Origin: Sneathiellales bacterium
GTDB taxonomy: Bacteria > Pseudomonadota > Alphaproteobacteria > JANQFL01
NCBI GenBank assembly: GCA_028277845.1
Contig: JANQFL010000087.1
Span: 13,704-77,703 of the forward strand
Reading direction: 5' to 3'
DNA: 64,000 nucleotides
Made by a program: the position numbers and the translations under genes. Shown piece by piece: positions 1-21,835 of the stretch; the stretch's first letter is position 1, and each line of letters opens with the position of its first letter. The notes below the pieces were generated by a model that was not told the origin of the DNA, did no database searches, and was given only the letters and a program-made list of their open reading frames with translations.

Positions 1-489
1 CGTGTCGACCCCGATCGGAATGCGCACCAGTTTGTCGCGCGGCACGCCCCAGTCCAGCAGTCGCCTCTCCATCACGGACGCGGCCGTGACCACTTTGTCG
101 AGTTTGCCAAGCGTGGCGAGGAACCGCTCGACATGGCGCGCCGCATCAGGGCCGTCTTCCGGTTTGCCGTGGAAGTACGTGACCACATAGCGGTTGGATG
201 CGGACAGGGCTTCGGACCAGACCTCCCACAAATACTGTGAGCCGAAGTGAGCCACGCTATTGAACAGTTGTTCCGGCCGCGACGTCAGCATGGCGGTGCC
301 CGCCGCCAGTGCGTTGACGCCTTCGGTGATGTAGGTGCCGTCCCAACGGGTCGACCAGTTGGCGTTTTCGGCAATAAAGGCGACGGGCGGTGTTGCCGGC
401 CTATACAGTCCGATGGCATGGGCCAGGGCATAGGATCGCCCGGCTAGGTGCCGGGCCATTTGCCGGAGCTGCGGTTGCAACGCGGTCAT
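1..489 (-). CDS. glycosyltransferase (GT4-like), N-terminal ~163 codons only; the 3' end of the gene lies beyond the window start
   Basis: Manual translation of the minus strand from the ATG at 489..487 is open to position 1 (MTALQPQLRQMARHLAGRSY...KLVRIPIGVDT). The start overlaps the upstream methyltransferase stop (ATGA). Absent from the ORF track because no stop falls inside the window. Confidence 0.45.
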   Translation of the reverse strand, partial: MTALQPQLRQMARHLAGRSYALAHAIGLYRPATPPVAFIAENANWSTRWDGTYITEGVNALAAGTAMLTSRPEQLFNSVAHFGSQYLWEVWSEALSASNRYVVTYFHGKPEDGPDAARHVERFLATLGKLDKVVTAASVMERRLLDWGVPRDKLVRIPIGVDT

Positions 490-1286
490 GTATCGGATGC
501 CGGTTTTCTGGCGACGGCCAGATACATGTGAGCGATCAGCCCGCCGGGCACGAACGGTGCCAGAACGACACTCAAGCCCTTGGTCACGAGCCATTCGTAA
601 GGCAGGCCGAATTCGTGATGCAACGACCGCAGGACGCCTTGCCGTTTGTGGATCGGCTTGACCGTTTCTACATCGAAACCGCCGAAGGTCAATTCACGCG
701 CCAGTTCTGCGCGGGTCAGGCGCCACTGGTAGAACTGGGAAACGTCGGTCGTATGCCGCCGCGGCAGGCGGGCAAAGGTTCCCCGCAGGGCATGACGCAA
801 ATTGTCGGCGGGAACCGAAATGAACAGCAACCCGCCCGGCTTGAGAATGCGCCAAGCCTCACGGATGCACGGCTGCAGGCCTTCTTCGAAATGCTCGAAC
901 ACGCCCCACGACAGGTAGGCGTCGAAGGTGTCGTCGGCAAATCCGGTGCCGCGGATGTCGCCGGTCACGAACTCCAGGTCCGGAAACAGTTCGTTGAGCT
1001 TGGCCACCGTTTCCCGGCTCAGGTCGAGGCCGGTCACCTTGTAGCCTTGCTTGGCCAGTTCGACCGGCCAGTCGCCCATGCCACAGCCGCCGTCGAGAAT
1101 ATGTCCGCCCGCCGGGACCGAGGACAGATAGGGCGCGATGACTTTGTACTCGTTCTTGCGGGTGATCGACTTGGTGGCCCGGGTCGGACCGCCCATCTCC
1201 TTCCACTTGTCGGTCCAATAGCGTTCGACAAAGGCGATCGAGGTTTCGTCCGCCGGCAGGTCGCCGACCATTACGTCCTTACGCAT
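486..1286 (-). CDS. class I SAM-dependent methyltransferase
   Basis: 266 aa ORF with glycine-rich SAM-binding motif ILDGGCGMGDW followed by the acidic loop VTGLDLS. Confidence 0.8.
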   Translation of the reverse strand: MRKDVMVGDLPADETSIAFVERYWTDKWKEMGGPTRATKSITRKNEYKVIAPYLSSVPAGGHILDGGCGMGDWPVELAKQGYKVTGLDLSRETVAKLNELFPDLEFVTGDIRGTGFADDTFDAYLSWGVFEHFEEGLQPCIREAWRILKPGGLLFISVPADNLRHALRGTFARLPRRHTTDVSQFYQWRLTRAELARELTFGGFDVETVKPIHKRQGVLRSLHHEFGLPYEWLVTKGLSVVLAPFVPGGLIAHMYLAVARKPASDT

Positions 1287-3492: not shown

Positions 3493-4464
3493 TCAGAACG
3501 TTTGCCGGTACCAGCCGATCATCTTGTCCAGTCCCTGCTCCAGCGAGACCCGAAACGCGAAGTCGGGCACGATGGCGCGGAACCGGCTCATATCGGCGCT
3601 CTTGACGAACCGGCCTTCCGGTCTGGACGTATCGGTCTGCAGCACCGGGTCCAGGCCGCCGAGCCGGCAGATCAGAGCGACCAGATCGGTCATGCAGATG
3701 GTTTCCTCGGTGCCGATATTGATTGCGCCATTGCTGTGCCCGGACGCCACCAGCAACGCCATCATTTGGGCGCAGTCGCTGGCGTGGACGTAACTGCGGC
3801 GCTGTTTGCCGCTGCCCCAGATGACCACCGGATCGGCACCGTCCATCACCCGCTTCACCAGCATGGGGATGGCCTGGCTGAATTCGCCCATCCAGTTGTA
3901 GCGCTCGCCGTAGATGTTGAATGGCCGTACGATCGTCATCGGAATGCCGGACTCGCGGCCGGCGATCAGCGCCTTTTGCTCAAGAAATCGCTTGGCCCAC
4001 CCATAGCCCCAGTTGACCGCCTCGGGGTCGCCTTCGAACAGCGGTAGTTCGGGTACCGTGTCGGGACCGTCATCGGCGTAGACGCAGGACGACGAGGTAA
4101 TGAGAACGTGCTCGGGTTTGTGGACGCAGACGGCATCGAGTACGGCATTGGTGATGCGTTCGTTGTGCTGCAGGATGTCGTAGTGCCGGCCGGCCGCGTA
4201 ACCGACGCCGTAGGCCCGGCTGGCCAAATGAAACACCATTTGGGCATCGGCCAGGGCATCGTGCGCGAATTCGGCGATTTCAAGATTGCCTTCGCGGATA
4301 ATCACCTGGTCCGCAATCTGTTTCAGATTCTCGCGCCGGCCTTTGGAAAAATCGTCGACTACGATCACTTTTGCGCCCGCACCTACCAGCTCGTCGCAGA
4401 GATACGAACCGATCAGTCCGGCGCCGCCGGTCACGGCGACGGTCTTGTCGCGGACATTGGCCAC
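3493..4464 (-). CDS. NAD-dependent sugar epimerase/dehydratase (extended SDR)
   Basis: N-terminal Rossmann motif VTGGAGLIGSYL and catalytic YxxxK (YGWAK). Confidence 0.8.
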   Translation of the reverse strand: MANVRDKTVAVTGGAGLIGSYLCDELVGAGAKVIVVDDFSKGRRENLKQIADQVIIREGNLEIAEFAHDALADAQMVFHLASRAYGVGYAAGRHYDILQHNERITNAVLDAVCVHKPEHVLITSSSCVYADDGPDTVPELPLFEGDPEAVNWGYGWAKRFLEQKALIAGRESGIPMTIVRPFNIYGERYNWMGEFSQAIPMLVKRVMDGADPVVIWGSGKQRRSYVHASDCAQMMALLVASGHSNGAINIGTEETICMTDLVALICRLGGLDPVLQTDTSRPEGRFVKSADMSRFRAIVPDFAFRVSLEQGLDKMIGWYRQTF

Positions 4465-4474: not shown

Positions 4475-5350
4475 CTAGTCGTCCAGTTCATAGCCGACGG
4501 CACGGATCTCGGCCGCGAGTTCTTGTTCGATCAGCCGGCGTTGGTGCGCGTTTAAAGTCTGTTTCCAGCGATACAGCGGCGATTCACTCACCGTGGTCAT
4601 ATTGTCGTAAGACGAATTGGCGGCGATAGGTTTCCCCAACCGAGACGGTTGCAGAACGCAGGGATCGAAATCGATGCCGATGAAGTCGCACAGGCTGCGC
4701 ATGGTCTTTTCGGTATCTTGTACCAAATCCTCGTAACGCAGGCCGTAGGCGTTCGGCTCGGGAGAGATCCAGAACCGGTTGGCCACATTGCGCCACAGGC
4801 CGCAGAAATCAACGAGTTCATTGTCATCGAACGGCCGGTTGCGGGTCTTTTCGCGCAGTTTGGTGTGGCTGGCAAACGTGGCGCGCGGATCGCGGATCGA
4901 CACCACATACTTGGCCGGGCCGAAGATCTTCTCGACATAGGGAGTCGGCCGCTTGCAGATATTGGCGATATGATTGACCGTCACACCGCGCCGGGGATGG
5001 CCGCAGAACGACGGGAAATAGATCTCCTGAAATAAATCATAGAACTCTTGCAAATTGCGTACCGGTCCAACCCGGCGGCCCACTTTCTCGGTCAACTGTC
5101 CATATGCGCCTTCGCCGTGGATCATTGTAATCATGTCCTCGAGGCGCTGGTGAAAACCGGCCTCGCGCAGTTTTAGGCTTCGCGGCAGATAACGGTAGAG
5201 AGCGAAATAGGGCTGCTTGATTTCGTTTTTGTTGCAGGTATTCCAGTATTCGAACGGGAAGACGTTGCATGCGGGATGACCGTCCAGCAGATTGTTGGTC
5301 AACGTGCCGCCGGAGCGGGACATGGACACGATGGAGACGTTGGTGTTCAC
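4475..5350 (-). CDS. sulfotransferase (PAPS-dependent type)
   Basis: N-terminal 5'-PSB-like motif SMSRSGGT and 3'-PB-like SIRDPRA; 291 aa. Confidence 0.7.
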   Translation of the reverse strand: MNTNVSIVSMSRSGGTLTNNLLDGHPACNVFPFEYWNTCNKNEIKQPYFALYRYLPRSLKLREAGFHQRLEDMITMIHGEGAYGQLTEKVGRRVGPVRNLQEFYDLFQEIYFPSFCGHPRRGVTVNHIANICKRPTPYVEKIFGPAKYVVSIRDPRATFASHTKLREKTRNRPFDDNELVDFCGLWRNVANRFWISPEPNAYGLRYEDLVQDTEKTMRSLCDFIGIDFDPCVLQPSRLGKPIAANSSYDNMTTVSESPLYRWKQTLNAHQRRLIEQELAAEIRAVGYELDD

Positions 5351-5402: not shown

Positions 5403-6776
5403 TCAGGCCGCCTGTTCGGCGACGGTGTCGTCGATCACGTCGACCAGACTCTCACCGTATTCCTTGCCGGTGTCGGCGACGAAATAGCGCGATTCGTCGC
5501 GCAGGCGGTCGGCGACGCACGGGTCGCCGATTTGCGCGATGAGCTCTCCGAACCGCGCCGGGAAATCGTCCTGAGCATCGCATTTAAGGATGCTGGTCTT
5601 GGCGATGAAGTCGTTGAAGTGCACCAGACCGAGATTGTGGTCGTTCGATTGGTTGGAGAGCGGATAGAACATCATCGCCGGCTTGCCGTTGAGCACCGAT
5701 TCAAGCAATACCGTGGAGAGTGGCGACACCACCGCCGAGGCGAGACGCAACAGCCGGTTCATGACATTGTAGTCGGCCAGATACATCGAAGACTTACCGT
5801 CGACGATGCGCTGGCGGTAAAAATCGGCCATGGATGGGTCCATGCTGATATGTTTCCACGGCACGGCAAAGAAGTCTTGTTCCTCGATTCCCAGGCCACG
5901 CCGCCACGGATGCGGTCGGTAAACGACATGAACGTCGGGCGCCTCGCCGCTCTCGATCATGTCGTCCATCATCTTCAGGTAGACGGTTTCGTAGTTGCCC
6001 GAACCGTTGCCGGCATAGAGCACAATACGTTTGCCGTCCGGCACGCCGAACTCGTCGCGCAGGGCCCGCTCGGAGGTATCGGTGGGGCGCCGGTAGACCT
6101 GGAACTGGGCGGCGCCAATCGCGCGCACCCGGTCACCGGCTATCCCCATATACTCGGTCGCCAGGTTCTTGCTGTGCTCGCCCCACACCACCAGGCGGTC
6201 GGGATAGCCCGACGACATGGCCTTGGCCGACGGATTGTCCCACGAGTTCATCAGGGCGATGAACGGGATCTTCCGCCGCTGGCAGATCTGCAGCAGGTCG
6301 TTCATGAAATAACCGCCGAGGACCGACGGATGAACGATGACATCCGGTTGGTGCCGGGCGATGAATTCGTCGAGGGGTTGGTGTGTGCCCATATAGCGGG
6401 TATAGGCGAAGCGGAAAAATGGAAAGACGAAAGGCAAGGCCAGGATGTCGAGGATACGGGTGCGTTTCTCGCCGATGGCGTTGACGACGTAGTTGCGCCG
6501 CGGCTCGTAGTTTCGCTTACCCCTCTGCAGGCGGAGCGCGTTGATCGTCACCAGCCACCACCACATGCCCATGCGCTTGCGCGGTACTTCGACGGTTTCC
6601 ATCTGGGCCAGGCCGAGGGTTGCCGGATCGGTATAGACGCCTTTTTTCTCCGACGTGGTGTCGCTGTGAAACACGTAGGTGACGTCGTAGCGCCGTTCCA
6701 ACGCCTGGAACGCGCCGCTGTGCACGAAATTGCGCACGACGGCATCCATGTCGATGAAGACGAGAGCCTTTTTCAC
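5403..6776 (-). CDS. hypothetical protein, capsule-synthesis/TagF-like fold with RPHP motif; possible (nonulosonic) sugar or glycerophosphate transferase
   Basis: 457 aa ORF with protein-like composition; VVYRPHP motif recalls the KPHP motif of KpsC/KpsS/TagF-type transferases. Family assignment is tentative. Confidence 0.45.
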   Translation of the reverse strand: MKKALVFIDMDAVVRNFVHSGAFQALERRYDVTYVFHSDTTSEKKGVYTDPATLGLAQMETVEVPRKRMGMWWWLVTINALRLQRGKRNYEPRRNYVVNAIGEKRTRILDILALPFVFPFFRFAYTRYMGTHQPLDEFIARHQPDVIVHPSVLGGYFMNDLLQICQRRKIPFIALMNSWDNPSAKAMSSGYPDRLVVWGEHSKNLATEYMGIAGDRVRAIGAAQFQVYRRPTDTSERALRDEFGVPDGKRIVLYAGNGSGNYETVYLKMMDDMIESGEAPDVHVVYRPHPWRRGLGIEEQDFFAVPWKHISMDPSMADFYRQRIVDGKSSMYLADYNVMNRLLRLASAVVSPLSTVLLESVLNGKPAMMFYPLSNQSNDHNLGLVHFNDFIAKTSILKCDAQDDFPARFGELIAQIGDPCVADRLRDESRYFVADTGKEYGESLVDVIDDTVAEQAA

Positions 6777-6820: not shown

Positions 6821-8950
6821 CTAGACGAATTCGTTGAGGCCGGTCAGGCCGCGGTCGCCGCTGTGCAGGTCCTGGCCGTCGGGCGGCGGCACCAGGTGGC
6901 GGGCCTCGCCGGCATATTCGGGAATGCGGTAGAGGCGGCGAACGTAGATCTTCGACAGGATACGGCCGATGCCGATGACCGAATCGCCGTAGATTTCGAG
7001 AAAGTCGCGGGCGGTTTTCTTCTGTTCGTCGGTCAGATCGAATGAGATATCCGCCGGTTCGGCGAAGCGATAGTCGGCCACGTCGCGCGGCTGCAGGTCA
7101 TCGCTGAAGCGGATGACATCGAATTTGAATGCGCCGCTGGTCGAGGCGTCCAGATTATCGAACAAATGGCTCGCCCGCAGCCTGCCGAACTCGATCAGCT
7201 CGCGGCCCAATTCGATCGCCGCGGCGTCGACGCCCTTGTCGGTGAAATAATCGGTCAGCGTCTTGGTCGCGACCTCGGCCACCTCGTCGACCAAACGGAT
7301 CAGGCCGAGGGTCTTGTATTTGAAGATCAGGTTGGCGCCCAATTCGCCGTCGATATAGCGTTTGACCGTGTCGCGCTGGCGCACGAAGTCTTCCAGATCC
7401 TCGCGTTCGCCCCAAAGCTCCGCCTTGGTTTCGGCGAGGAAATCGGCGATCAGTTGATCGAAGCGGTCATTGCCGCGGAACGCCCAGATCCTTTCGATCC
7501 ATTCGTATTTCGAAAGGCTGAGCAGCTTGATCAGCCGCAGCACCTCCTTGTAGACGGCGTCGTTGTAAAACAGGTTGACGACCAGGTGCATGTGGCGGGC
7601 GCTGAGATATTCGTCGAAAGTGATGGCGTCGTTGCCGACGCAGATTTCCTCTACCTCAGCGGCGTTGATTGCCTCGCCGAGTACGTCGAAATAGCCGTAG
7701 CAGCGCGGCAGGACGCGATACCGATTGACCATCTTCCACTTGTCGACGCTTTCGCGCGTCGCCAGGTCGGTACCCGGCAGCAGCATCAGTTGAAACAGCG
7801 CCACGGTGTTGAAGTCGGCCTCGACGATGGTCCGTATGGTTTTCAGGTGCGCCTGCAGGCTGTCTCCCGGCAGACCGAGGATGATCTCGGAATAGCTGTT
7901 GGCGCCGATTTCGCTCGCCGCCAGGGCCAGGTCGAGAATTTCCTGCTCGTCGATGTTGTTGCGTTCGATGTTTTCCAGAACGTCCTTGTCGAGGCTCTGC
8001 ACCGATCCTGAAATGCGCAGCGAACCGCTGATGATGTTGGCGGCCTCAAGCACCCGGTGTTTTTGGTTCTTGCCGGTGGCGACGTTGATGTATTCGGGAA
8101 AACCGTACGTCTTCTGCACTTCGGCGATGGCGCGGCAGGTGTCGAGATCCTCCTTGTACATGCCGAAATTGGAGTCGGCGATGAACATGTCGGAGCGGGC
8201 CCGGCCGTTGCGGCGCAGTTCGGCCATGCGTGCGCCGATCAGGTTCATCTCGTCGCGCACCCGGTCGGTCTTGCCCTTGGCAACCTTGGAATAGTACTTG
8301 GTGCCCTCGACACAGAAGGTGCAGCGGAATGGACAGCCCCGGTTGGTCTGGATGATCGGCAGCATGACACCGTCGAAAAACTCGTCCATCAGCCCCTGAA
8401 GATAGGGTGACGGGATATCGGACAGATCGAGGCGCGGGGTGGTTTCCTGCGGTCCGTCGAAGCCGCCGTCCGCCATCAGGCGATGCACCGACGGCAAGCC
8501 GTGCGGTACGCCGCCCGGATCGAAGGCGCACGCCTCCAGCCGCTCGACGAGGTCGGCGAAGGCCGCCTCGCCCTCCTTGACGATGAAGAAATCGAACATG
8601 GGGTGGGCGCGGACGAATTCTTCCTGCTCGGCCGGATTTGTCGGATAGTTGGGGCCGCCGAACACGGTCACCACGCCAGGCAGCCTGCGCTTGATGACTG
8701 CCGCGAACTGGCTGCTCAGGTCCCGGTTCCAGATATAGTTGGAAAACCCGATCACCGCCGGTGCCGGTTCGTTGTCCAGGGCCGTGGCCAGCTTTTCCGG
8801 AAATTTGAACAGCCGGAATTGCGGCGGGTTAGGCCGCCTGCTGGCGGTATAACTGGCGATGCAGCCGATCGCCGCCGGCATGACGTCGGACGCAACGGTC
8901 TGCTGTGTATAGGTCAGGTCACATAGCCAGATCGACGGGGCTTCGGTCAA
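6821..8950 (-). CDS. B12-binding domain radical SAM protein
   Basis: CxxxCxxC motif NRGCPFRCTFC at 8312..8335. Start set at in-frame TTG 8950 preceded by GGAG 8 nt upstream; the ORF-track ATG at 9061 would overlap sqdB by 79 nt. A GTG at 9010 is an alternative. Confidence 0.7.
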   Translation of the reverse strand: MTEAPSIWLCDLTYTQQTVASDVMPAAIGCIASYTASRRPNPPQFRLFKFPEKLATALDNEPAPAVIGFSNYIWNRDLSSQFAAVIKRRLPGVVTVFGGPNYPTNPAEQEEFVRAHPMFDFFIVKEGEAAFADLVERLEACAFDPGGVPHGLPSVHRLMADGGFDGPQETTPRLDLSDIPSPYLQGLMDEFFDGVMLPIIQTNRGCPFRCTFCVEGTKYYSKVAKGKTDRVRDEMNLIGARMAELRRNGRARSDMFIADSNFGMYKEDLDTCRAIAEVQKTYGFPEYINVATGKNQKHRVLEAANIISGSLRISGSVQSLDKDVLENIERNNIDEQEILDLALAASEIGANSYSEIILGLPGDSLQAHLKTIRTIVEADFNTVALFQLMLLPGTDLATRESVDKWKMVNRYRVLPRCYGYFDVLGEAINAAEVEEICVGNDAITFDEYLSARHMHLVVNLFYNDAVYKEVLRLIKLLSLSKYEWIERIWAFRGNDRFDQLIADFLAETKAELWGEREDLEDFVRQRDTVKRYIDGELGANLIFKYKTLGLIRLVDEVAEVATKTLTDYFTDKGVDAAAIELGRELIEFGRLRASHLFDNLDASTSGAFKFDVIRFSDDLQPRDVADYRFAEPADISFDLTDEQKKTARDFLEIYGDSVIGIGRILSKIYVRRLYRIPEYAGEARHLVPPPDGQDLHSGDRGLTGLNEFV

Positions 8951-8982
8951 GTCATCTGCTCCACGCTGCAAGGCCGATCGGT

Positions 8983-10149
8983 CTATCGATCCGCTTTCTC
9001 GGACGACCACTGGATCCGTGGGTTCATCACGTTCCGGTCCACGAAGTCTACATGCCGGCATACCGTTTGGTACATGGCGTCCAACACGGCTTCCGTTAGA
9101 AGGTTAGGGCGCAATCCGAGATCGACAAGTTTCGAGTGCTTTGCGTTGTAGTAATGATCCTCCAATTCCACCCGGGGATTCTCCAGGTGGTCGATCTGTG
9201 TATCCTGCCCGTTGCGCTTCGCGGCAGCGACCACCATTTCGGCCAGTTGCAGGACCGAGAACTGTTCGGTGAACTGGTTGAAGACACGGAAATCGCCGCG
9301 ATCGGCCGGATTGTCGACCGCCAGGGCGACGCACTGGATGGTGTCCTTGATATTGAGGAAACCGCGCGTCTGGCCACCCTTGCCGTAAACCGTCAGGGGG
9401 CATCCGATCGCCGCCTGGACCAGAAATCGGTTCAGAACCGTGCCGAACACATCGTCGTAATGGAACGACGTCTCCAGGTCGGGGTGCAGCACGGTCTGAT
9501 CCGTCTCGATACCGTAAACGACTCCCTGGTTGAGGTCGGTCGCCCGCATGTCCCAAATCCGGCAGGTGAATTCGATATTGGCCGAATCGTGCACCTTGGA
9601 CAGGTGGTAAAAACTGCCGGGACGCTTGGGGAACAGGACCCGGTCCTTGCGGCCGTTGTGTTCCAGCTCCAGCCAGCCTTCCTCGATATCGATGTTCGGC
9701 GTGCCGTACTCGCCCATGGTGCCCAGCTTCACCAAATGTGCGTCCGGGCAATGAGCCCGCATGGCGAACAGGACGTTCATCGTGCCTTCGATATTGTTTG
9801 TCTGGGTGTAGACCGCGGTCGTTCTGTCCTGCATCGAATAGGGGGCGGAGGGCTGCTCGCCGTAGTGCACGATGGCGTCGGGCTTGAATTCCCGGATCAC
9901 CTTGTAGACGAAGCGATGGTTACACAGATCCCCGACCATCAGCGCGATGTCGTTACCGCTGATTTCCTTCCAGCGCCGGACGCGCCGGTGCAACGGTGGA
10001 ATGGCCGCCAGCGGCTCGATGCCTTCCTCCAACTCCCATTGCCGTTTGGCGAAATTGTCGACGATGGCAACCTCGTCGCCGCGGGCGGAGAAATGCATGG
10101 CCGTCGGCCAGCCCAGATAACCATCACCACCAAGAACCAATACACGCAT
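8983..10149 (-). CDS. sqdB: UDP-sulfoquinovose synthase (SqdB/SQD1 family)
   Basis: Long blocks match SQD1 as I recall it: GGDGYLGWPTAMH, VKLGTMGEYGTPNIDIEEG, FYHLSKVHDS, RATDLNQGVVYG, LTVYGKGGQTRGFL, FRVFNQFTEQFSV, HYYNAKH. Confidence 0.85.
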   Translation of the reverse strand: MRVLVLGGDGYLGWPTAMHFSARGDEVAIVDNFAKRQWELEEGIEPLAAIPPLHRRVRRWKEISGNDIALMVGDLCNHRFVYKVIREFKPDAIVHYGEQPSAPYSMQDRTTAVYTQTNNIEGTMNVLFAMRAHCPDAHLVKLGTMGEYGTPNIDIEEGWLELEHNGRKDRVLFPKRPGSFYHLSKVHDSANIEFTCRIWDMRATDLNQGVVYGIETDQTVLHPDLETSFHYDDVFGTVLNRFLVQAAIGCPLTVYGKGGQTRGFLNIKDTIQCVALAVDNPADRGDFRVFNQFTEQFSVLQLAEMVVAAAKRNGQDTQIDHLENPRVELEDHYYNAKHSKLVDLGLRPNLLTEAVLDAMYQTVCRHVDFVDRNVMNPRIQWSSEKADR

Positions 10150-10197: not shown

Positions 10198-10932
10198 CTA
10201 AAGTCGGGATCCGTCACTCATGTGAGGGAGTTCGATGGCGCCGCTCGACAGCAGCGCCTCCGCAATCGGGAGGTCTTCGGGACCGTCTAGGTCGAGGCCA
10301 TAGCGCGAGTCAATGCCAATTCCCGCGCAGGGCTCCGCATAAAACCCCGATCCATCGCGCAAGGCGTCCGTCCGCGCCGCGATCAGATTGCCGAACACCA
10401 TCAGTTTCGGCTTGTTCTGTTTCAGCCGTGCGCTGCCGCGTTCCTCGGCAAACAGAAAGCCGACCCGGCCGTCGGCATCCAGCTGCCTCTGGTTCCAGGC
10501 GTGGCTGTTGTGTGCCACGGCGATGACGTTGTGGGCCGATCGTGCCGCGCCGTCGCGTTCGAACACGCCCAGCAGTTCCTCGACATGGACGGGCAGAAGA
10601 AACGGCGATGTCGGTTGAATCAGCACGATGACGTCGGGCAGCGTTTCGCCCTGGCCGGCCGCGCGTTCGAGATATTCCCGCACTACGTCGTCGACCTTGA
10701 CCGCGTCGCCGCCCAGGTCGTCGGGCCGCCGATCCACGTCCACCCCGAGCGCTATTGCCCGTTGGGCGATGCGGTCGCTGTCCGTCGAGCAGACGATGCG
10801 GTCGAGGCGCCCGGAGGCGATCGCCGCCGTGATGCCGTAATCGAGCAGCGGCCGGCCGGCGACGGACACCAGGTTTTTCAACGGAATGCTTTTCGATCCG
10901 CCCCGCGCCGGGACGAAACCCCAGGCGTTCAT
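10198..10932 (-). CDS. acylneuraminate cytidylyltransferase family (CMP-nonulosonate synthetase, NeuA/LegF/PseF-like)
   Basis: N-terminal PARGGSKSIPLKN motif typical of CMP-NeuAc/CMP-Kdo-type cytidylyltransferases; start overlaps upstream stop (ATGA). Confidence 0.75.
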   Translation of the reverse strand: MNAWGFVPARGGSKSIPLKNLVSVAGRPLLDYGITAAIASGRLDRIVCSTDSDRIAQRAIALGVDVDRRPDDLGGDAVKVDDVVREYLERAAGQGETLPDVIVLIQPTSPFLLPVHVEELLGVFERDGAARSAHNVIAVAHNSHAWNQRQLDADGRVGFLFAEERGSARLKQNKPKLMVFGNLIAARTDALRDGSGFYAEPCAGIGIDSRYGLDLDGPEDLPIAEALLSSGAIELPHMSDGSRL

Positions 10933-11888
10933 CGGCCGGACTCCCTCGCCAGTGCGCGCAACGCCTTGTCGATGACGAAGGCTTCGGTCTCGCTCCAGGC
11001 GTCGTGGGTCGAACCGCCGATATGCGGCGTCAGGATCAGATTGTCGTGTTCCCGGGCATAGACGGCGACGCGGCTGTCACCGAACGACTGGGCAAAATCG
11101 GTGCGGTATTCGCCGTCGATGGTATCGAGGGCGGCGGCCTGGAGATGGCCCGATTCCAGCAGGTCGAGCAAGGCGTCCAGGTCCAGGAGTTCGCCGCGGG
11201 CCGTGTTGACCACCACGGCGCCCCGGGGCAGCGCCTCCAGCACGGCGCGCGAAACGAGGTTGCGGGTTCCGTCGTTGGCCGGTGCGTGCAGGGACAGGAC
11301 ATCGGAGCCGGCGGCCAGGGCTTCGATTGTGTCCACGCCGCCGTCGACGTAGGGATCGTAGTAGGCCGTCTTCATACCGATGGCTTCGGCGATGCGGGCG
11401 ACCTTGCGGCCCAGCCGGCCATAGCCGACAAGGCCCAGGCGCATACGGGACAACATGCGCGGCGCACCCCACGGCCGCCGGTTCCAGGCACCACTGGCCG
11501 CCGCCGCGTGAGCCGCCGGAATCCGCCGCCAGGCCGCCATCATCAGGCCGATGGCGTGTTCCGCCGTCGGTGTGATGCCGTCGAGAAACTCGGGCTCGTC
11601 GTGCAGGGCGCACACCGCGATATGTCTGCTCGCGGCGGCCTGGGCATCGATATGGGGAATGCCCGTGGTGTTGGACACGACCGCGCGCAGGCGTGGGCAG
11701 CGATCCATCTTGTCCGCGTCCACGGCAAATCCCAGGGGCGCGAACAGCACTTCGGTTTCGGCCAACATGTCCGCCGTGTCGTCGCGCGGGTCATCCAACG
11801 CCGTCAGGTCGAAACAGTCCCGAAGCCGGGCCAGGTTCTCGGGCTGGTAGCTCATGATGCGGTAATAGAGGGCGCGGGGACGGGGCAT
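10929..11888 (-). CDS. D-isomer-specific 2-hydroxyacid dehydrogenase family
   Basis: NAD-binding GLVGYGRLGRKVA and C-terminal catalytic region (LILTPHIGGST). Start set at Met 58 of the ORF (11888) to avoid overlap with the upstream gene; Met 69 (11855) is an alternative. Confidence 0.7.
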   Translation of the reverse strand: MPRPRALYYRIMSYQPENLARLRDCFDLTALDDPRDDTADMLAETEVLFAPLGFAVDADKMDRCPRLRAVVSNTTGIPHIDAQAAASRHIAVCALHDEPEFLDGITPTAEHAIGLMMAAWRRIPAAHAAAASGAWNRRPWGAPRMLSRMRLGLVGYGRLGRKVARIAEAIGMKTAYYDPYVDGGVDTIEALAAGSDVLSLHAPANDGTRNLVSRAVLEALPRGAVVVNTARGELLDLDALLDLLESGHLQAAALDTIDGEYRTDFAQSFGDSRVAVYAREHDNLILTPHIGGSTHDAWSETEAFVIDKALRALARESGR

Positions 11889-11895
11889 CGCGGAG

Positions 11896-13050
11896 TCAGT
11901 AGGCCAGGGTCTTGTCGACCGGTGGCAAAGGCGCGGCAAGGCATGCGGCAATCTGTTCGCCCGCGCGGCCGTCGCCGTAAACCGTATCGGAGGGATAGAC
12001 GCCGTGCGCGATCTGGCGCCGGGTTGCGGCGACGATCTCGTCGGTGTCGTGGCCGACATTGACGACGTTGCCGCCCTGCTGGCGGCCGCGCTGGCGGTTG
12101 CCGATATTGACCACCGGGACTCCGAGGAACGCGCTTTCGCGAATGCCGCTCGACGTGTTGCCGACCAGGCATACCGCGTTCTTGATCAACGCCGCATAAC
12201 GTACGAAGTTCAGCCCCGAAATCGTCCGCACCGGCGGGGCATCGCCGTTCGATTGCAGGGCACTTAAAGGGCCGGCCACCGATTGGGCGCCGGCGTCGTC
12301 GTTGGGCAGCACCCAGATAGTGGGAATGTTCAACTCCACCACGGCATCGGCGGTGTGCGTGAACTGGCGCCGGGCATCGTCGTATTCCGTCACGACGGGA
12401 TGCTGCGACACCACCAGGTATTCCGCCGTCAGATCGACCGCGGCGCCGTTGCCGTTGTCGGTCAAACACCGGTCCAAATCATCACCGGCGGCCAAGTCGA
12501 GACCGGCGAGCTGATCCAGACTCGGCGTGCCGACGACGTGCACGGTGTCGGCAATCTCGCCCAGGCGGATCAGCCGGTCGGCCGCGTCCCTGTTGGCCGG
12601 AAAATGAATGTGGGCCAATTTGGTGATGGCGTGCCGGATGCGTTCGTCGATGGAACCCGAAACCTCGCCGCCCTCCAGATGGGCGATGACGGTATTGCGG
12701 CACATCGCCGCCTGGGCGATCGACAGGCATTCGTACCGGTCGGCGATGACCATCACCACGTCGGGATCGAGCTCGGTCAGAATTCGGCCGAATGCGATCG
12801 TGCAACGGCCGGCCGACTCGACGACCGAGTCGAGCGTCTGCCCAGCGGCGATATAGTCCAGGGTGCGGTCGATGGTGAAACCATCCCATTCGATAACTTC
12901 GACAAAGGAGTCGTAGTCTTGCCCGAGCAGGATACCGCCCACGACCAACTGCAGGGACAAATCGGGGTGGCGCTGAATGGCCGCCATGGTCGATTTCATC
13001 TTGCCGTAATTGCCCCGCGTGGTCAGGACGATGCAGATGCGGCGACTCAC
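11896..13050 (-). CDS. UDP-N-acetylglucosamine 2-epimerase (hydrolysing), NeuC/LegG-like
   Basis: 384 aa; motifs IADRYECLSIAQAA and HLEGGEVSGSIDE typical of the UDP-GlcNAc 2-epimerase family. Confidence 0.75.
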   Translation of the reverse strand: MSRRICIVLTTRGNYGKMKSTMAAIQRHPDLSLQLVVGGILLGQDYDSFVEVIEWDGFTIDRTLDYIAAGQTLDSVVESAGRCTIAFGRILTELDPDVVMVIADRYECLSIAQAAMCRNTVIAHLEGGEVSGSIDERIRHAITKLAHIHFPANRDAADRLIRLGEIADTVHVVGTPSLDQLAGLDLAAGDDLDRCLTDNGNGAAVDLTAEYLVVSQHPVVTEYDDARRQFTHTADAVVELNIPTIWVLPNDDAGAQSVAGPLSALQSNGDAPPVRTISGLNFVRYAALIKNAVCLVGNTSSGIRESAFLGVPVVNIGNRQRGRQQGGNVVNVGHDTDEIVAATRRQIAHGVYPSDTVYGDGRAGEQIAACLAAPLPPVDKTLAY

Positions 13051-14081
13051 GGTTCGAGAACCTCCCAGGTCAGCGGCGCGTCTGCGGCGACCGGTTGCTT
13101 GAGGCGCTTGCCGATCACATCGGCCAGATCACCGGGCGAGATCCCGGTGCCGGGCCGTTTGGCGGCGACATCGGTTTCGGCGATCACGTGACCGGCCGGC
13201 AGATCGTTGCGGGCAACCAGGGATTTCAGCGCCCATTCCATGCCCGGCCGCTCGCTGGCCGCCGGTTCCTTGCGGCCATGCCCGAGCATGGTCTCGACCC
13301 GTCGGATATCGGCCACCAATTGCGGCAGATCCTCGGGGCCGGCCGAGACCTTCCAGTCCTGGGCATTGGGCACGTCGCGCAGAATGGTGATGTGCTTCTC
13401 GATGATCTGGGCGCCGCGGGCGACCGCCGCAAGCACGGCCAAACCGTCTTCCGTGTGATCGGAATAACCGACCGGGCCGGGGAACGCCGTGCGTATATGG
13501 TCCATCGCACTCAGATTGACATCGGCCGGCGGTGCCGGATAGCTGGTGACACAATGCAGCAGGGCGATATCGGCGCATCCGGCGTACAGGCAGGCGTTCG
13601 TCGCTTCGGCGATATCGTCCAGGCCGTACATGCCGGTCGAGATGATCATCGGTTTGCCAAGCGCCGCCAGACGGGCCAGGAAGGCTGGATTGCCGCGCTC
13701 GCCCGAGCCGACCTTGACCGCCGGCACATCCAGGGTTTCGAGCCACGGGATACGGGTCTCGTCATGGGCGGTCGCCATGAACAACAGCCCGCGGGCTTCG
13801 CAGCGTTCTTTCAGTTCGACCGCCTGATCCAAGGTCAGGTTGCGCGGCCGCAACCGGTCCTGCCAGTCGGCGGCCCGGTTGGAGATCAGTGCCTCGACGT
13901 CGAAAAACTGGGTCTTGAAGACATCCGCGTTGGCATCGGCCGCCAGGTCCACCAGGTCACGGGCCAAGCCCATGTCGCCGAAATGGGCGACGCCGGCTTC
14001 GGCGATGAACAGGCAGGGTGCGTCACCGCCGACCCGGCGATCGCCGATGCGGAACGAAGACACCGGCTGAAGGCTGTTCAT
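13047..14081 (-). CDS. N-acetylneuraminate synthase family (NeuB/LegI/PseI-like nonulosonic acid synthase)
   Basis: Start at internal Met (MNSLQPV) giving ATGA overlap with the upstream ABC gene stop; NeuB-like TIM-barrel region plus C-terminal SAF-like domain. Confidence 0.8.
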   Translation of the reverse strand: MNSLQPVSSFRIGDRRVGGDAPCLFIAEAGVAHFGDMGLARDLVDLAADANADVFKTQFFDVEALISNRAADWQDRLRPRNLTLDQAVELKERCEARGLLFMATAHDETRIPWLETLDVPAVKVGSGERGNPAFLARLAALGKPMIISTGMYGLDDIAEATNACLYAGCADIALLHCVTSYPAPPADVNLSAMDHIRTAFPGPVGYSDHTEDGLAVLAAVARGAQIIEKHITILRDVPNAQDWKVSAGPEDLPQLVADIRRVETMLGHGRKEPAASERPGMEWALKSLVARNDLPAGHVIAETDVAAKRPGTGISPGDLADVIGKRLKQPVAADAPLTWEVLEP

Positions 14082-15925
14082 GAGGACCCGCCCTGGCCCG
14101 TGGCGGCCACCGGGGGCTGCTGCGCGAGGGCATGAAACAGCTCGGTCGACCGGTACAGCGACTGATAGGTGCCCTGTGCCGCCAGGCGGCCGTCTTCGAG
14201 GACGAAAATGGTATCGCACTCGGCGATGGTGGAAATGCGGTGGGCGACGGTGATGGTGGTCACTTCGCCTTTCAGTTTGGCCACCGTATCCTGGATCAGT
14301 TTTTCGGTGCCGGTGTCGAGCGAACTTGTCGCCTCGTCCAGCACAAGGATATCGGGCGCGTCATACAGCGCCCGGGCAATGGTGACGCGCTGGCGCTGAC
14401 CGCCGGAAAGCCGCAGGCCGCGGTCTCCCATCACCGTGTCGAGGCCGTCATCCAACTCGGCGACCACGTCGGTCAAGCCGGCCTTGTCGAGGGCGCGGCG
14501 TACCTTGTCGTTGTCGATGTCGGCGTCGGGCACGCCAAAGGCGACATTGCGCCGCAGTGTATCGTTGGCGATGAACGGCGACTGAGGCACATAGCCAATT
14601 CGGCCGAACCAGTTCGATCGGGCGAAGTCGGTGATGTCCGTGTCATCCAAACGCACGTGACCGTCGGTCGGCGGCAAAACACCGAGCAGGATGTCGACGA
14701 ACGTCGACTTGCCCGCGCCCGATGGGCCGACCACGCCGACCGATTGACCGCGGGCTATCGCCAGGGAAATGCGATCGAGCGCGGTGGCGGTCGTGCCCGG
14801 GTAGGAAAAACTGACGGCATCGAAGTGGATGGCCGACCACTCGTCCGGTACCTTGGCGCCACCACTGGGCTTCCCCCATTCCGTTTCCGCCGCCGCCAGT
14901 TCGGCGCGCAAGTCGGCGAGTCCCCTGGTATAGGCCCTGACCTTGGCCAGTTTCGTGATGGTACCGACAACACGGGACAGGGCAGGGATAAGACGGGCGC
15001 TGATCAATCCCAGCAAAGCGACCTGCGAGGCGATTTCGCCGGTGCTGGCACCGGCACCGAACAGGGACACCGCGACGATGATCAGTCCGAGCTGGCCGGT
15101 CAACAGCAGCCCCATCGGCACGGCCCGTTGCAGCAGTTGCGCCTTCATACGGCTTGTGGCGGCCCTGTGATAGAGACGTGTGTACATGCTGGTGAAGAAC
15201 CCTTGACGGGCCTTGACCTGGATATCCTTGATGCCGTTGACCGCCTCGACGCCAAGCTGGCTGCAATGCAGCCATTGGGTCCGTTCGTCGGCGGCGTAGC
15301 GGGCGATGCGTGGGCGAATGACCGCCATCATCATGACGGCGGCGAAGGCGATAATCGCGGCGACGGCAACGATCGCCTGCCACGGCAAGGCAACCGCCAC
15401 CACCGCAAAGGCAAAGACAAGCAGCAGCGAGGTGTACACCAGCTCCATGACCGTCGGATACAGCGACACCGCCGTGTTGGTCGGATCTTTGTAGAGCCGA
15501 TGGGACAGCATCGCCGCATTCTGGCGCAGGAACCAGACATAGGGTGCCTTGAGGCAGCGATTGAGCAGGTCGTTGGCCAGATAACGCCCGATACGGACAC
15601 TGAGGATTTCGGTCATGAACAGCGAGAAATAGCTGCCGATAACGCCCAGAACCAGCAGGCTCGCGGCGATAAGGCCGAGCATCTGGATCAACTCCCGTTC
15701 CGTGTCGGTCGCCAGGATATCGGCGATCTTTTGCAGCCATTCGCTGCGCTGAAGCATGGTCGGTTCGACCACCAGCGTCACGAAAGGCGCCGCCGAGGAT
15801 AGGGCGACCATTTCCAGGGCGCTGGTGAACACGAACAGCAGCAGGATCGCAGCCGCGGCAGTCTTCTGCCGGGCCGTCAGGAACGACCAGCCGATGGCGA
15901 CGATATTGGTTGACGGTTTCGTCAT
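14078..15925 (-). CDS. ABC transporter, fused permease/ATP-binding exporter
   Basis: N-terminal hydrophobic helices; Walker A GPSGAGKST, signature LSGGQRQR, Walker B ILVLDEATS. Start at Met 21 (MTKPSTNIV) avoids overlap with the upstream gene. Confidence 0.85.
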   Translation of the reverse strand: MTKPSTNIVAIGWSFLTARQKTAAAAILLLFVFTSALEMVALSSAAPFVTLVVEPTMLQRSEWLQKIADILATDTERELIQMLGLIAASLLVLGVIGSYFSLFMTEILSVRIGRYLANDLLNRCLKAPYVWFLRQNAAMLSHRLYKDPTNTAVSLYPTVMELVYTSLLLVFAFAVVAVALPWQAIVAVAAIIAFAAVMMMAVIRPRIARYAADERTQWLHCSQLGVEAVNGIKDIQVKARQGFFTSMYTRLYHRAATSRMKAQLLQRAVPMGLLLTGQLGLIIVAVSLFGAGASTGEIASQVALLGLISARLIPALSRVVGTITKLAKVRAYTRGLADLRAELAAAETEWGKPSGGAKVPDEWSAIHFDAVSFSYPGTTATALDRISLAIARGQSVGVVGPSGAGKSTFVDILLGVLPPTDGHVRLDDTDITDFARSNWFGRIGYVPQSPFIANDTLRRNVAFGVPDADIDNDKVRRALDKAGLTDVVAELDDGLDTVMGDRGLRLSGGQRQRVTIARALYDAPDILVLDEATSSLDTGTEKLIQDTVAKLKGEVTTITVAHRISTIAECDTIFVLEDGRLAAQGTYQSLYRSTELFHALAQQPPVAATGQGGSS

Positions 15926-15950
15926 GGATTCAGTTTGGAGTTCGCCCGCC

Positions 15951-17654
15951 TCAATAATCGGCGATGAACTTGTAGCTGTCCGCACGGTCCATCTTGTAGG
16001 AATGGTAGTGCATCCGGTCGGAATGGAACCAGCCGTGCAGCAGATCGGTTTCCTGTTGCAGCGGGGCGGGATTGTCGCTCACGACCTTCCGGTAATCCTC
16101 ATACAGGGCGAAGATCGCCGAATCGTCGCCGGTGACGAAACTGTCCTGCCAATCGGGATGGCAGAAGAACCAACCGGCAAAGACCTTGGCGCTCTCCCGT
16201 GTCTTGGCCAGATCCAGGTCGTTCCACCAGGGCCGTTTGAGGCAATCGATGTATTCTTCGCGGGATCGGCACCAGGTGCCGACGCCGCAATCGTGGAACC
16301 AACCGCGGTCCGCCATCAACGACGGCTTGCCGAGATACGCGTATTCGATGGCGGCGGTGCCGGTACAGGTGATGACGGCGTCGACGCAGTCCATCACCGC
16401 CCGGCCGTTCCAGCCCTGGGGCGCTATCTGGACATGGCCGGCCATGCGCTCGCCGATATAGTCGGCCAACGACGCGCCGCCGTACCACAGATCGCAGGGG
16501 TGGGGCTTGAACAGCCAGTAGACGTCGGTGTTTTGCTTGGCGATATCGACCGTCAGGGAAATCCAGTCGAGATAGTCTGTGAAGTTGTTGAGCCCGAACA
16601 CGTGCGGATAGTCGAACCAGTTGGAGGCATAGACGCCGACGATGGGCTTGTCCTCGGTCCAGCCGAAGCGCTGGCGCAATTGCTCCCGGTCGATGTGGTC
16701 GTTGGCGTTGATGTAGGCATACAAGGTGCCCAGATCCAACGTCTTGCCGTTGAGGCGGTTGTCCAGGTACGAGCCGCCGACCTCGGACAGGGACCCCAGC
16801 TGTTGCGGGCTCAGGTTTCGGGCGTGTTCGACCGGCAGGCGGTCGACCCAATCGAAGATGGCTTCGCGCGAGCGGATCTTCCAGTATCGCGGCACGCCGT
16901 AGCAACCGTACAGCACCACCGCCGGAATACCGAGCGATAGGGCGACATAAGCCAGCGCGCCATAACGGAACTCGATGACATGGCTGAGGATCAGCAGGGA
17001 CGTGCGTTCGGCCGACAATATGCGTTCGGCGGCGTCGATGCTCAGCAAGGCTTCGGCGACGTGGTCCTCCAGTTTCGGGTCCGCCATGTCGATGGTGCCG
17101 AGGCGGCGACGCTTGAGAATGCCGTCATAGACCCAGCCGCCGGGAAAGCCGTGCGGCAGGTCCCATTCCATCATGTCTTCCGGACGATCGGTCATATCCA
17201 GAAGCTGTCGTGCCCGGCGGCGGGCGTCCTTGAGGCCGGAACGGAAGTGTTTTTCAAACCGCACCGTGTCATTGATGCCGAGACGGTTCATGGTCTCCTT
17301 GGCCTCGCGGGTGCGCCACTTGCCGACGATGCCGACCTCGTTGGCGGTCGGCAGCCCGAGGGCCTTGCGCAACAAGGTCAGGCGCCACCAGTAGTTCGGA
17401 TTGAACCACATGCCGTCGATCAGCACCCGGTCCGGGAACGTCTTGTCCGTCGACTCGGCGATCTGCCGGAACAGATTCTCCGCCGGAATTCGCTGGCGTT
17501 GAATCTCCTGCCAGCGCGCCCGTTCGGACGGTGTGATTCGGCGGCGCAGCATTTGGCCCTGGGCGTAAAGGTGCTTCGCCGCGGTTAACATGCGCGAAGA
17601 GGCCTTCGACAAGGGCGACGGACGGGTATTTGATTCTGAGGTGGAAACGGTCAT
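15951..17654 (-). CDS. capsule-polysaccharide-biosynthesis-like protein (KpsC/KpsS/LpsZ-like fold with KPHP motif); candidate glycosyltransferase
   Basis: 567 aa with WLFKPHP motif. Family assignment tentative; start could also be Met 22 (17591). Confidence 0.45.
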   Translation of the reverse strand: MTVSTSESNTRPSPLSKASSRMLTAAKHLYAQGQMLRRRITPSERARWQEIQRQRIPAENLFRQIAESTDKTFPDRVLIDGMWFNPNYWWRLTLLRKALGLPTANEVGIVGKWRTREAKETMNRLGINDTVRFEKHFRSGLKDARRRARQLLDMTDRPEDMMEWDLPHGFPGGWVYDGILKRRRLGTIDMADPKLEDHVAEALLSIDAAERILSAERTSLLILSHVIEFRYGALAYVALSLGIPAVVLYGCYGVPRYWKIRSREAIFDWVDRLPVEHARNLSPQQLGSLSEVGGSYLDNRLNGKTLDLGTLYAYINANDHIDREQLRQRFGWTEDKPIVGVYASNWFDYPHVFGLNNFTDYLDWISLTVDIAKQNTDVYWLFKPHPCDLWYGGASLADYIGERMAGHVQIAPQGWNGRAVMDCVDAVITCTGTAAIEYAYLGKPSLMADRGWFHDCGVGTWCRSREEYIDCLKRPWWNDLDLAKTRESAKVFAGWFFCHPDWQDSFVTGDDSAIFALYEDYRKVVSDNPAPLQQETDLLHGWFHSDRMHYHSYKMDRADSYKFIADY

Positions 17655-18617: not shown

Positions 18618-18657
18618 GACGTCGAACGGCAGGGCGTTATCCGATCGGCTAGGCAGG

Positions 18658-19365
18658 TTATTGGGCAACGGTGTTCTGCTCCAAGGTCGATGACTTGAGC
18701 GCGCCGATGACCTCGTGCGCGCTCGCCGTGGCCCAGGACGGGCCCAGTGTATCCATGATGCGGTGGGCGCGTTCCAGATCCTCCACGGTATCGACGGAGA
18801 CGTTTTGCTGCGACAGGTCTTCATCGAGGCAAACATTTTCAATGCGAAACGCATCGGTGTAACGGTACATGTGGCGGGTCAGGTGTTCGCGGTCTTCCGG
18901 GTCGTCGCTGGCGGCAATGGCGCGCTGCAGCGCCTGTGTCTGGATCACTTCGACGGTCATGCCGACGGGAAAGGAACGGGGAAACGCATTCGTCGCCAGG
19001 TCTGCACCGGTGTTCTGCTGCAAATCCCGCAACTGTGTCATCACATCGATCGGCACGAACGGACTGTCGCCGGTCACACGGATAAACGTCTCCAGGCCAT
19101 GTAATTGCGCACATGCCAGCGCCCGGCCGGCAACATCATCGCACGATCCACGAAACACGCCGACCTGTTCGTTATCCGCCAGTTCCGCAATGGCGTCGTC
19201 GACCGGTCGGTCCGAGGTGGCGACGAAAATCGGCAGCGCGGGGTGCAAGGCGCGCAACCGTTCGAGCACCCGGCTCAACAACGGTTTTCCGGCCAGGGCG
19301 ATGAGGGCCTTGCCCGGCAGGCGCACCGAGTCGAAGCGGGAAAAGACGAGAATTCCGGCGGTCAT
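18658..19365 (-). CDS. cytidylyltransferase, SpsF/PseF-like (CTP_transf_3 type)
   Basis: Start at internal Met (MTAGILVFSRFDSVRLPGKAL), the characteristic N-terminus of this family; the upstream 104 codons of the ORF are low-complexity. Confidence 0.7.
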   Translation of the reverse strand: MTAGILVFSRFDSVRLPGKALIALAGKPLLSRVLERLRALHPALPIFVATSDRPVDDAIAELADNEQVGVFRGSCDDVAGRALACAQLHGLETFIRVTGDSPFVPIDVMTQLRDLQQNTGADLATNAFPRSFPVGMTVEVIQTQALQRAIAASDDPEDREHLTRHMYRYTDAFRIENVCLDEDLSQQNVSVDTVEDLERAHRIMDTLGPSWATASAHEVIGALKSSTLEQNTVAQ

Positions 19366-19369
19366 GGCG

Positions 19370-20437: not shown

Positions 20438-20467
20438 ACGTTACATCCTTTCAACTTGTCGCGATGC

Positions 20468-21832: not shown

Positions 21833-21835
21833 TCC

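Follow-up and report, generated by a model that had tools for sequence, protein, structure and literature searches.

A radical SAM enzyme of the TokK/CysS type, predicted to depend on cobalamin, and a proposed nonulosonate C-methylase, in a glycan island of a Sneathiellales bacterium

The 64,000-nucleotide stretch of a Sneathiellales bacterium analyzed in this study (contig JANQFL010000087.1, positions 13,704 to 77,703; hereafter the window) carries, in a glycan island on its minus strand, a gene encoding a radical S-adenosylmethionine (SAM) enzyme of the cobalamin-dependent class that is built like TokK and CysS, with cobalamin binding predicted from its sequence and structural model. What was established for this protein is its fold, its cofactor-binding motifs, its conservation and the neighbourhood of its gene, and the reading that we favour, with somewhat better than even confidence, is that of a methylcobalamin-dependent C-methylase acting on an intermediate of a nonulosonate pathway, the substrate and the chemistry of which we infer from the neighbourhood and from homology. 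The type of enzyme is a known one; its subfamily, which has no characterised member, departs from the nearest relatives at a residue of catalytic importance. The gene and its three predicted domains are as follows:

6821-8950, minus strand: gene of the cobalamin-dependent radical SAM enzyme of TokK/CysS type, 709 amino acids (aa), stop codon TAG at 6823-6821
8396-8950, minus strand: N-terminal cobalamin-binding Rossmann domain, approximately residues 1-185
7631-8395, minus strand: radical SAM core, approximately residues 186-440, including D259-S-N261
6824-7630, minus strand: mainly helical C-terminal domain, approximately residues 441-709, folded like the C-terminal domains with which TokK and CysS bind their substrates

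The Pfam model Radical_SAM (PF04055) matched residues 201-373 with 36.2 bits against a gathering score of 29.5, and the top NCBIfam match was the KedN5 family of methylcobalamin-dependent C-methyltransferases (NF033712; residues 52-399, E 2.7e-42). A search of the PDB with the single sequence returned TokK (E 1.6e-41, query residues 59-463) and CysS (E 3.8e-33), with the next match at E 0.017. With a profile of 52 homologs, the values became 2.9e-57 for TokK and 4.5e-50 for CysS; the only other structure at E<=0.01 was HemN (1OLT, 0.0096), and TsrM, OxsB and MgmA gave no match in this profile search. Moreover, an AlphaFold2 model built on the alignment of the 52 homologs had a mean predicted local distance difference test score (pLDDT) of 88.1 and a predicted template modelling score (pTM) of 0.88, only the last 25 residues being disordered. 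Foldseek aligned this model to TokK over 667-679 columns with a template modelling (TM) score of 0.68-0.73 and to CysS over 728-733 columns with 0.65-0.74, whereas OxsB and TsrM reached only about 0.4-0.56, and MgmA and AprD4 were also far behind. Whole-length TM scores of 0.65-0.74 were obtained with TokK and CysS only. Because the model aligned with these two structures over its whole length, the cobalamin Rossmann domain, the radical SAM barrel and the C-terminal substrate-binding domain are, by this model, common to all three enzymes.

The cluster that comprises TokK, ThnK and CysS along with Swb9 and PctJ is distinguished by a tryptophan under the cobalt, GG and GE motifs, a cysteine loop, a D-A-N motif and Trp215; in TokK, D250-A-N252 replaces the GGE motif, and Trp215, which lies one residue past the cysteine loop, stacks between the iron-sulfur cluster and cobalamin (PMC9204698; bioRxiv 10.1101/2021.07.10.451909). 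Substitution of Trp215 slows methylation by TokK dramatically (bioRxiv 10.1101/2021.07.10.451909). This residue has been predicted to be a marker of iterative methylases, and the characterised cluster members that the review names are all methylases, either proven or proposed (PMC9204698). Two elements of the present enzyme bear directly on this comparison:

8312-8335, minus strand: cysteine loop CPFRCTFC with Cys206, Cys210 and Cys213 (codons 8335-8333, 8323-8321 and 8314-8312), the predicted [4Fe-4S] ligands
8306-8308, minus strand: codon of Glu215, at the position of TokK Trp215 and CysS Trp206, a subfamily-specific acidic residue

Conservation was assessed in a close set of 52 homologs and in a distant set of 127 sequences, namely the query and 126 sequences of full length, each of which represents a 50%-identity cluster and shares 28-47% identity with the query. 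The three cysteines were invariant in both sets (127/127 in the distant one). Trp74 in the sequence SNYIWN (codon 8731-8729), the counterpart of TokK Trp76 and CysS Trp75, was kept in 126 of the 127 representatives, and D259-S-N261, which corresponds to TokK D250-A-N252, retained its Asp in 126 and its Asn in 125. The N-terminal domain also carries GG at residues 98-99 and GE at 127-128, and these cobalamin-side motifs were kept in at least 95% of the representatives. Glu215 was invariant among the 52 close homologs, and the 127 representatives had Glu in 75 cases, Asp in 25, Gln in 8 and Ala in 5. Judged from the sequence, the cofactor machinery of the TokK cluster is retained, and the lining of the active site is different and more polar, which is the main unexplained feature of the enzyme. 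As Trp215 is Glu here, the chemistry may differ from that of TokK.

An earlier note, made from the letters of the window, had reported the CPFRCTFC motif and a B12-type N-terminal region. The motif was found at exactly its coordinates, on the minus strand (8335-8312), and the conservation of the cysteines, which the note had proposed to check, proved to be complete. Its B12-type region is borne out by the homology to the cobalamin domains of TokK and CysS, by the motifs SxYxWN, GG and GE and by the match in fold. The domain search that it had suggested succeeded for Radical_SAM and fell short of the gathering score for B12-binding, as detailed below. The comparison with characterised class B methylases, in which TokK and CysS were the sole strong PDB matches, sharpens the earlier assignment, since it places the enzyme specifically with the TokK/ThnK/CysS cluster of (iterative) methylases and not with GenK or Fom3.

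The subfamily is large and widespread, without a characterised member as far as was found. A word-indexed search gave 1626 homologs, the best 120 of which were 49-63% identical, full length and 700-730 aa long; with a profile, an exhaustive search detected 2020 50%-identity clusters at E<=1e-30, the top 150 all scoring above 499 bits and most of them being of full length. Relatives were encoded in 144 stretches (GTDB contigs, one genome per species) from Rhodospirillales, Pelagibacteraceae, Betaproteobacteria, Nitrospira, Nitrospina, Omnitrophota, Saccharibacteria, Parcubacteria, Planctomycetota, Streptomyces and Entotheonella, as well as from the archaeal groups Promethearchaeota and Nanoarchaeota. 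With so many homologs, mostly full-length clusters in the profile search and relatives across many phyla, 6821-8950 is a real gene under selection. In the databases, homologs go by generic names such as 'B12-binding domain-containing radical SAM protein' and 'cobalamin-dependent protein', and the source names of the exact protein and of five homologs were uninformative. The JGI label 'YgiQ (UPF0313)' carried by relatives finds no support in the domain evidence and is regarded as wrong.

The genes around the enzyme provide the evidence for its substrate. In this study, 82 related loci were compared with the island proteins by tblastn and their neighbours were clustered de novo, and for five homologs the called genes were read with precomputed Pfam matches. 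The following partners of the radical SAM gene in the window make up, together with it, a six-gene cassette:

13047-14219, minus strand: NeuB-type nonulosonate synthase, closest to N-acetylneuraminic acid (Neu5Ac) synthases
11896-13050, minus strand: NeuC-type hydrolysing 2-epimerase of uridine diphosphate (UDP) sugars
10929-12059, minus strand: D-2-hydroxyacid dehydrogenase, closest to phosphoglycerate dehydrogenases
10198-10932, minus strand: cytidylyltransferase like cytidine monophosphate (CMP)-nonulosonate synthetases, closest to CMP-Neu5Ac synthetases
8983-10149, minus strand: sqdB, UDP-sulfoquinovose synthase

The last of these is, by its homology, a genuine SqdB: it aligned over its full length with Arabidopsis SQD1 (PDB 1QRR; 511 bits, residues 2-382) and kept the catalytic Thr and the Y-H-x-x-K motif (GTMGEYG, SFYHLSKVHDS), and its score with NCBIfam NF041015 was 463.8, below the cut-off of 575.

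Nine distinct loci with full 10-kb flanks and a radical SAM protein at least 50% identical to the query were compared as the nearest loci (L004, L083, L010, L085, L007, L038 from Pelagibius sp. 7325, L084, L009 and L014). SqdB (54-74% identical), NeuB, NeuC and the CTP_transf_3 protein were present in all nine and the 2-hydroxyacid dehydrogenase in eight. The window order NeuB-NeuC-2HADH-CMPt-SqdB-rSAM (2HADH, dehydrogenase; CMPt, cytidylyltransferase; rSAM, radical SAM enzyme) recurred in L083 and L039; the order was 2HADH-CMPt-rSAM-NeuB-SqdB-NeuC in L084 and NeuC ... 2HADH-rSAM-CMPt-SqdB-NeuB in L085. The linkage of the six genes persists despite this shuffling, which argues that they form a functional unit. 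Moreover, the cassette, complete or partial, was found in Betaproteobacteria, a deltaproteobacterial metagenome-assembled genome, Omnitrophota and Saccharibacteria, with radical SAM proteins 39-47% identical to the query. Across 73 loci, the identified families met most often at a distance of up to three genes from the radical SAM gene were cytidylyltransferases (17), SPASM radical SAM proteins (17) and NeuB (15). More distant members also lay in other nonulosonate clusters, some of which (L024, L070) carried a dehydratase and a DegT aminotransferase in the place of SqdB.

A second TokK-like paralog stood beside the radical SAM gene in 14 loci. Glycan clusters with two or three TokK-like paralogs, often together with a small SPASM protein, were seen in L024, L025, L030, L033, L050, L051, L057, L063, L067, L070-L075 and L084. 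Such clusters suggest that a single sugar undergoes a series of radical modifications.

By homology to TokK and CysS, the proposed reaction would begin with reductive cleavage of SAM by a [4Fe-4S] cluster on Cys206, Cys210 and Cys213. The resulting 5'-deoxyadenosyl radical would take a hydrogen off an unactivated carbon of the substrate, and the substrate radical would receive a methyl group from methylcobalamin, bound base-off in the N-terminal Rossmann domain with Trp74 beneath the cobalt; a second SAM would then re-methylate cob(I)alamin. The neighbourhood suggests that the substrate would be an intermediate of a nonulosonic acid of the neuraminic or ketodeoxynonulosonic (Kdn) type, made by the co-transcribed and evolutionarily linked NeuC, NeuB, CMP-synthetase, 2-hydroxyacid dehydrogenase and SqdB genes. 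This intermediate is probably nucleotide-linked, since a cytidylyltransferase is the commonest annotated adjacent gene. Fom3 of the fosfomycin pathway, a cobalamin-dependent radical SAM methylase, methylates cytidylyl-2-hydroxyethylphosphonate (PMC9204698), and a CMP handle thus suits this enzyme class. Such a reaction would yield an acidic sugar with one or possibly several C-methyl groups, destined for a sulfated polysaccharide of the cell surface.

Several observations weigh against this assignment. The Pfam model B12-binding (PF02310), which is listed for most homologs in precomputed annotation, scored 28.3 bits (E 1.8e-6, residues 52-134), slightly below its gathering score of 32.1, and the KedN5 model scored 144.8 bits, far under its family cut-off of 700. 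The Cys-x3-Cys-x2-Cys-x-Trp signature of the TokK cluster is broken by Glu215 in place of Trp215, and the substrate contacts TokK Arg280 and CysS Trp271 are not kept, the equivalent Asn289 varying across the family. In addition, distant members occur in other contexts, for example in loci with carbamoyltransferase and SPASM radical SAM genes, and the Streptomyces relatives (about 40% identity) occur only in a conserved pair with a MurG-like glycosyltransferase. When these relatives were examined for membership of a known antibiotic cluster, only this pair was found. Given such differing contexts, the whole family cannot share one substrate.

The same kind of methylase might instead act on sulfoquinovose, as UDP-sulfoquinovose or as a glycan residue, rather than on a nonulosonic acid. 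The gap between the gene and the bona fide sqdB upstream of it is 32 nt, and SqdB (45-75% identity) accompanies the enzyme in about 21 of the 82 loci, including all nine close relatives with full flanks. However, about 60 of the 82 loci have no SqdB within 10 kb, and NeuB and CMP-synthetase are the commoner neighbours, also in legionaminic-type clusters in which the DegT aminotransferase replaces SqdB. Furthermore, a cytidylyltransferase directly adjoins the radical SAM gene in 8 loci and SqdB in only 2. We consider a sulfoquinovose substrate unlikely.

An equally improbable alternative is that the enzyme performs cobalamin chemistry other than methylation on a sugar intermediate, such as rearrangement, ring contraction, epimerisation or dehydration (compare OxsB, HpnJ and BchE), with the conserved acidic residue 215 serving as a general base. 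Non-methylase cobalamin-dependent radical SAM enzymes do exist (PMC9204698), TokK's Trp215, a residue of importance for catalysis, gives way to Glu or Asp in 100 of the 127 representatives, and AprD4, a radical SAM sugar 1,2-diol dehydratase, is among the weaker fold matches. In sequence and fold, however, the enzyme is far nearer to TokK and CysS than to OxsB; it keeps the tryptophan beneath the cobalt as well as D-x-N, and the characterised members of its cluster in the review are the proven or proposed methylases mentioned above.

More doubtful still is an alkyl extension of the CysS/KedN5 kind, in which a class-I methyltransferase would add an O- or N-methyl group that the radical SAM enzyme builds up to an ethyl, isopropyl or larger group. 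The closest characterised relatives, TokK, ThnK and CysS, are all iterative methylases; a class-I methyltransferase adjoins the radical SAM gene in 7 of 73 loci (L009, L010, L014, L021, L026, L029 and L031), and a related one is encoded in the island of the window (486-1286). However, the latter lies at a distance of 5.5 kb, glycan islands often contain methyltransferases anyway, and Trp215, the predicted marker of iteration, is absent here. Finally, the sub-threshold Pfam score might suggest a degenerate Rossmann fold that binds no cobalamin and hence an ordinary radical SAM enzyme, but this is highly improbable, as the conservation of the SxYxWN motif with Trp74, of GG and of GE stays at 95% or more in a set reaching as low as 28% identity, and this speaks for selection on cofactor binding.

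C-methylation of a nonulosonate-pathway intermediate remains the reading that we prefer, and it may be extended, tentatively, to the cassette as a whole. Mechanistically, SqdB is a 4,6-dehydratase that adds sulfite. Since the cassette is without amination genes and SqdB has this mechanism, the six linked genes might encode one pathway to a new class of sugar acid, a 9-deoxy-9-sulfo nonulosonic acid, C-methylated possibly more than once; we regard this extension as rather doubtful. In such a pathway, SqdB would take the role of the 4,6-dehydratase and aminotransferase of the legionaminic pathway. The NeuC homolog would turn UDP-sulfoquinovose, by hydrolysis and 2-epimerisation, into 6-sulfo-mannose, which the NeuB homolog would condense with phosphoenolpyruvate to the 9-deoxy-9-sulfo nonulosonic acid; the acid would be CMP-activated and the TokK-like enzyme would C-methylate the sugar. 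Sulfoquinovose may thus be a nonulosonic acid precursor. Genes for an aminotransferase or N-acetyltransferase of the legionaminic or pseudaminic type were not found in the window, nor were SPASM radical SAM, DegT, Gfo/Idh/MocA or carbamoyltransferase partners.

Nonulosonic acids, among them the sialic, legionaminic and pseudaminic acids, are displayed on the surfaces of bacteria and archaea, where they influence how hosts and phages recognise the cells. To our knowledge, their known modifications are N-acyl and O-linked groups, and a radical SAM step has not been described. No literature linking radical SAM enzymes, with or without cobalamin, to nonulosonic acids was found, nor any linking sulfoquinovose to them, in a search whose coverage left out most subscription journals; the cassette of SqdB and nonulosonate genes with a radical SAM enzyme appears to be previously undescribed. 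If the proposed pathway is true, it would yield a sulfonated nonulosonic acid, bring a cobalamin-dependent radical SAM step into nonulosonate biosynthesis and have a TokK-type enzyme act on a nucleotide sugar, each for the first time. The TokK/CysS enzyme type would be extended from antibiotic pathways to primary cell-envelope biosynthesis, and surface-glycan structure would depend on the supply of vitamin B12. A widespread cobalamin enzyme in nonulosonate clusters, with carriers among Alpha- and Betaproteobacteria, Nitrospira, Omnitrophota, Saccharibacteria, SAR11 and archaea, points to C-alkylated, perhaps sulfonated, sugar acids that are new to glycan chemistry.

With regard to the gene itself, the open reading frame (ORF) spans 6821-9061 on the minus strand, and translation from TTG 8950 gives the protein of 709 aa. 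The corresponding ribosome-binding element was read from the sequence:

8959-8962, minus strand: Shine-Dalgarno sequence GGAG, 8 nt upstream of TTG 8950

Homologs start 7-30 residues ahead of the motif DLTYTQQT, which occupies residues 11-18 and is invariant in close homologs, and the NCBI record (P0001) is a 709-aa protein identical to the reading from TTG 8950. On account of the GGAG spacing, the N-termini of the homologs and the identical record, TTG 8950 is the best start. ATG 8881 was rejected because it would remove invariant residues including DLTYTQQT, and ATG 9061 because it would overlap sqdB by 79 nt and add residues that are not conserved; the in-frame TTG 8971 (716 aa), which has no Shine-Dalgarno sequence, is a minor possibility. 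Three opposite-strand ORFs (7166-8011, 7899-8294 and 8483-8926) were dismissed as ordinary high-GC shadow ORFs, since homologs conserve the minus-strand frame. The stop codon of sqdB lies at 8985-8983, 32 nt from the radical SAM gene, which is separated by 44 nt from the next gene downstream. No promoter- or terminator-like sites were found in these two gaps, where scan counts were at chance level, and no paralog of the enzyme is encoded elsewhere in the window. The earlier note had put the length at about 710 aa, had preferred TTG 8950 with its GGAG and had placed the gene directly downstream of sqdB in a glycan island, and all three statements hold, the island including nonulosonic acid genes. 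Its guess of a C-methyl or other modification on sulfoquinovose or a nonulosonic acid is consistent with the conserved neighbourhood, from which we infer the favoured substrate.

About 20 minus-strand genes, following one another in one direction with very small gaps, make up the island, which stretches from about 23.5 kb to beyond the start of the window. Besides the cassette, it includes the following:

21218-23500, minus strand: protein of 760 aa without Pfam match
20451-21263, minus strand: protein of 270 aa without Pfam match
19370-20437, minus strand: short-chain dehydrogenase/reductase (SDR)
18658-19677, minus strand: cytidylyltransferase
17688-18854, minus strand: sulfotransferase-like protein
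15951-17654, minus strand: protein of 567 aa without Pfam match, with homologs in three related loci (L009, L024 and L039)
14078-15985, minus strand: ATP-binding cassette (ABC) exporter of the MsbA type
5403-6776, minus strand: protein of 457 aa, directly downstream of the radical SAM gene
4475-5350, minus strand: sulfotransferase
3493-4464, minus strand: SDR
towards the start of the window, minus strand: glycosyltransferases and the class-I methyltransferase (486-1286)

The island glycan is probably both sulfated and sulfonated, because two genes of sulfotransferase families (4475-5350 and 17688-18854) accompany SqdB. In locus L083, a fused ATP-sulfurylase gene lies nearby. The 457-aa protein gave weak matches to the BFO_1060 family glycosyltransferase (a nonulosonate-transferase family of Tannerella; 36 bits against a cut-off of 200), TIGR04396 and Glyco_transf_4, and its homologs (41-46% identity) recur in cassette loci; by its sequence, it is a possible nonulosonate transferase. 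In their longest ORFs, NeuB and the dehydrogenase extend into the genes before them, by 141 and 163 nt respectively, their homology begins at about residue 53 (NeuB) and about residues 70-100 (dehydrogenase), and their homologs are 308-347 aa long. For these reasons, the true starts are probably at least about 50 codons downstream, and the first 50-70 residues of NeuB are probably not translated.

No signal of horizontal transfer was detected, the GC content of the island (0.58-0.66) being the same as that of the rest of the window. Genes with housekeeping functions (PhaC, an OmpA-family protein, homoserine dehydrogenase, GlpX and RecJ) follow on the right of the island. The ORF of PhaC, a polyhydroxyalkanoate synthase (24064-26310, minus strand; 748 aa), shows its PhaC_N domain from residue 255, so that either it has a long N-terminal extension or its start codon has been placed too far upstream. 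At 56000-62000, the plus strand has a strongly positive AT skew (0.18-0.27) that coincides with minus-strand genes of Mrp/Nuo-type antiporter membrane subunits (Proton_antipo_M), hydrophobic proteins, and is thus an effect of codon composition and not a separate feature.

Compared with known systems, the enzyme has functional analogs in two pathways. Its likeness to Fom3, a cobalamin-dependent radical SAM methylase whose substrate carries a CMP handle put there by a neighbouring cytidylyltransferase, is one of function only; Fom3 belongs to another sequence cluster, and no Fom3 model was among the NCBIfam matches of the present enzyme. GenK and GenD1 of the gentamicin pathway C-methylate a sugar carbon by cobalamin-dependent radical SAM chemistry (PMC9204698). 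This likeness is likewise a functional analogy, as they belong to another family cluster and to aminoglycoside secondary metabolism, and they have neither the full-length fold relationship of the TokK kind nor a sequence relationship to the enzyme. The KedN5 family model (NF033712), unlike these, does match by sequence, but leaves the C-terminal third of the enzyme unmatched.

CysS, the methylase of the cystobactamid alkoxy group (PDB 9N1B, 9N1C and 9N1D), shares the three domains and the lower-axial tryptophan (CysS Trp75). It differs in that its Trp206 and its gate Trp271 correspond to Glu215 and Asn289 here, and its substrate is the O-methyl group of a carrier-linked aromatic acid. TokK and ThnK, the carbapenem C6 methylases of Streptomyces (PDB 7KDX and 7KDY), have the same whole-length three-domain architecture, with sequence homology through the cobalamin and radical SAM domains and with the Trp, GG, GE, cysteine loop and D-x-N motifs in common. 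However, the identity is only about 22%, their Trp215 is Glu215 here, and their substrate-anchoring Arg280 is Asn289. Moreover, TokK and ThnK sit in a beta-lactam cluster, whereas the present enzyme is encoded in a glycan and nonulosonic acid cluster, and its substrate, unlike theirs, is unlikely to be pantetheinylated. The natural variant with Glu in place of Trp215 offers a handle on the role of that residue.

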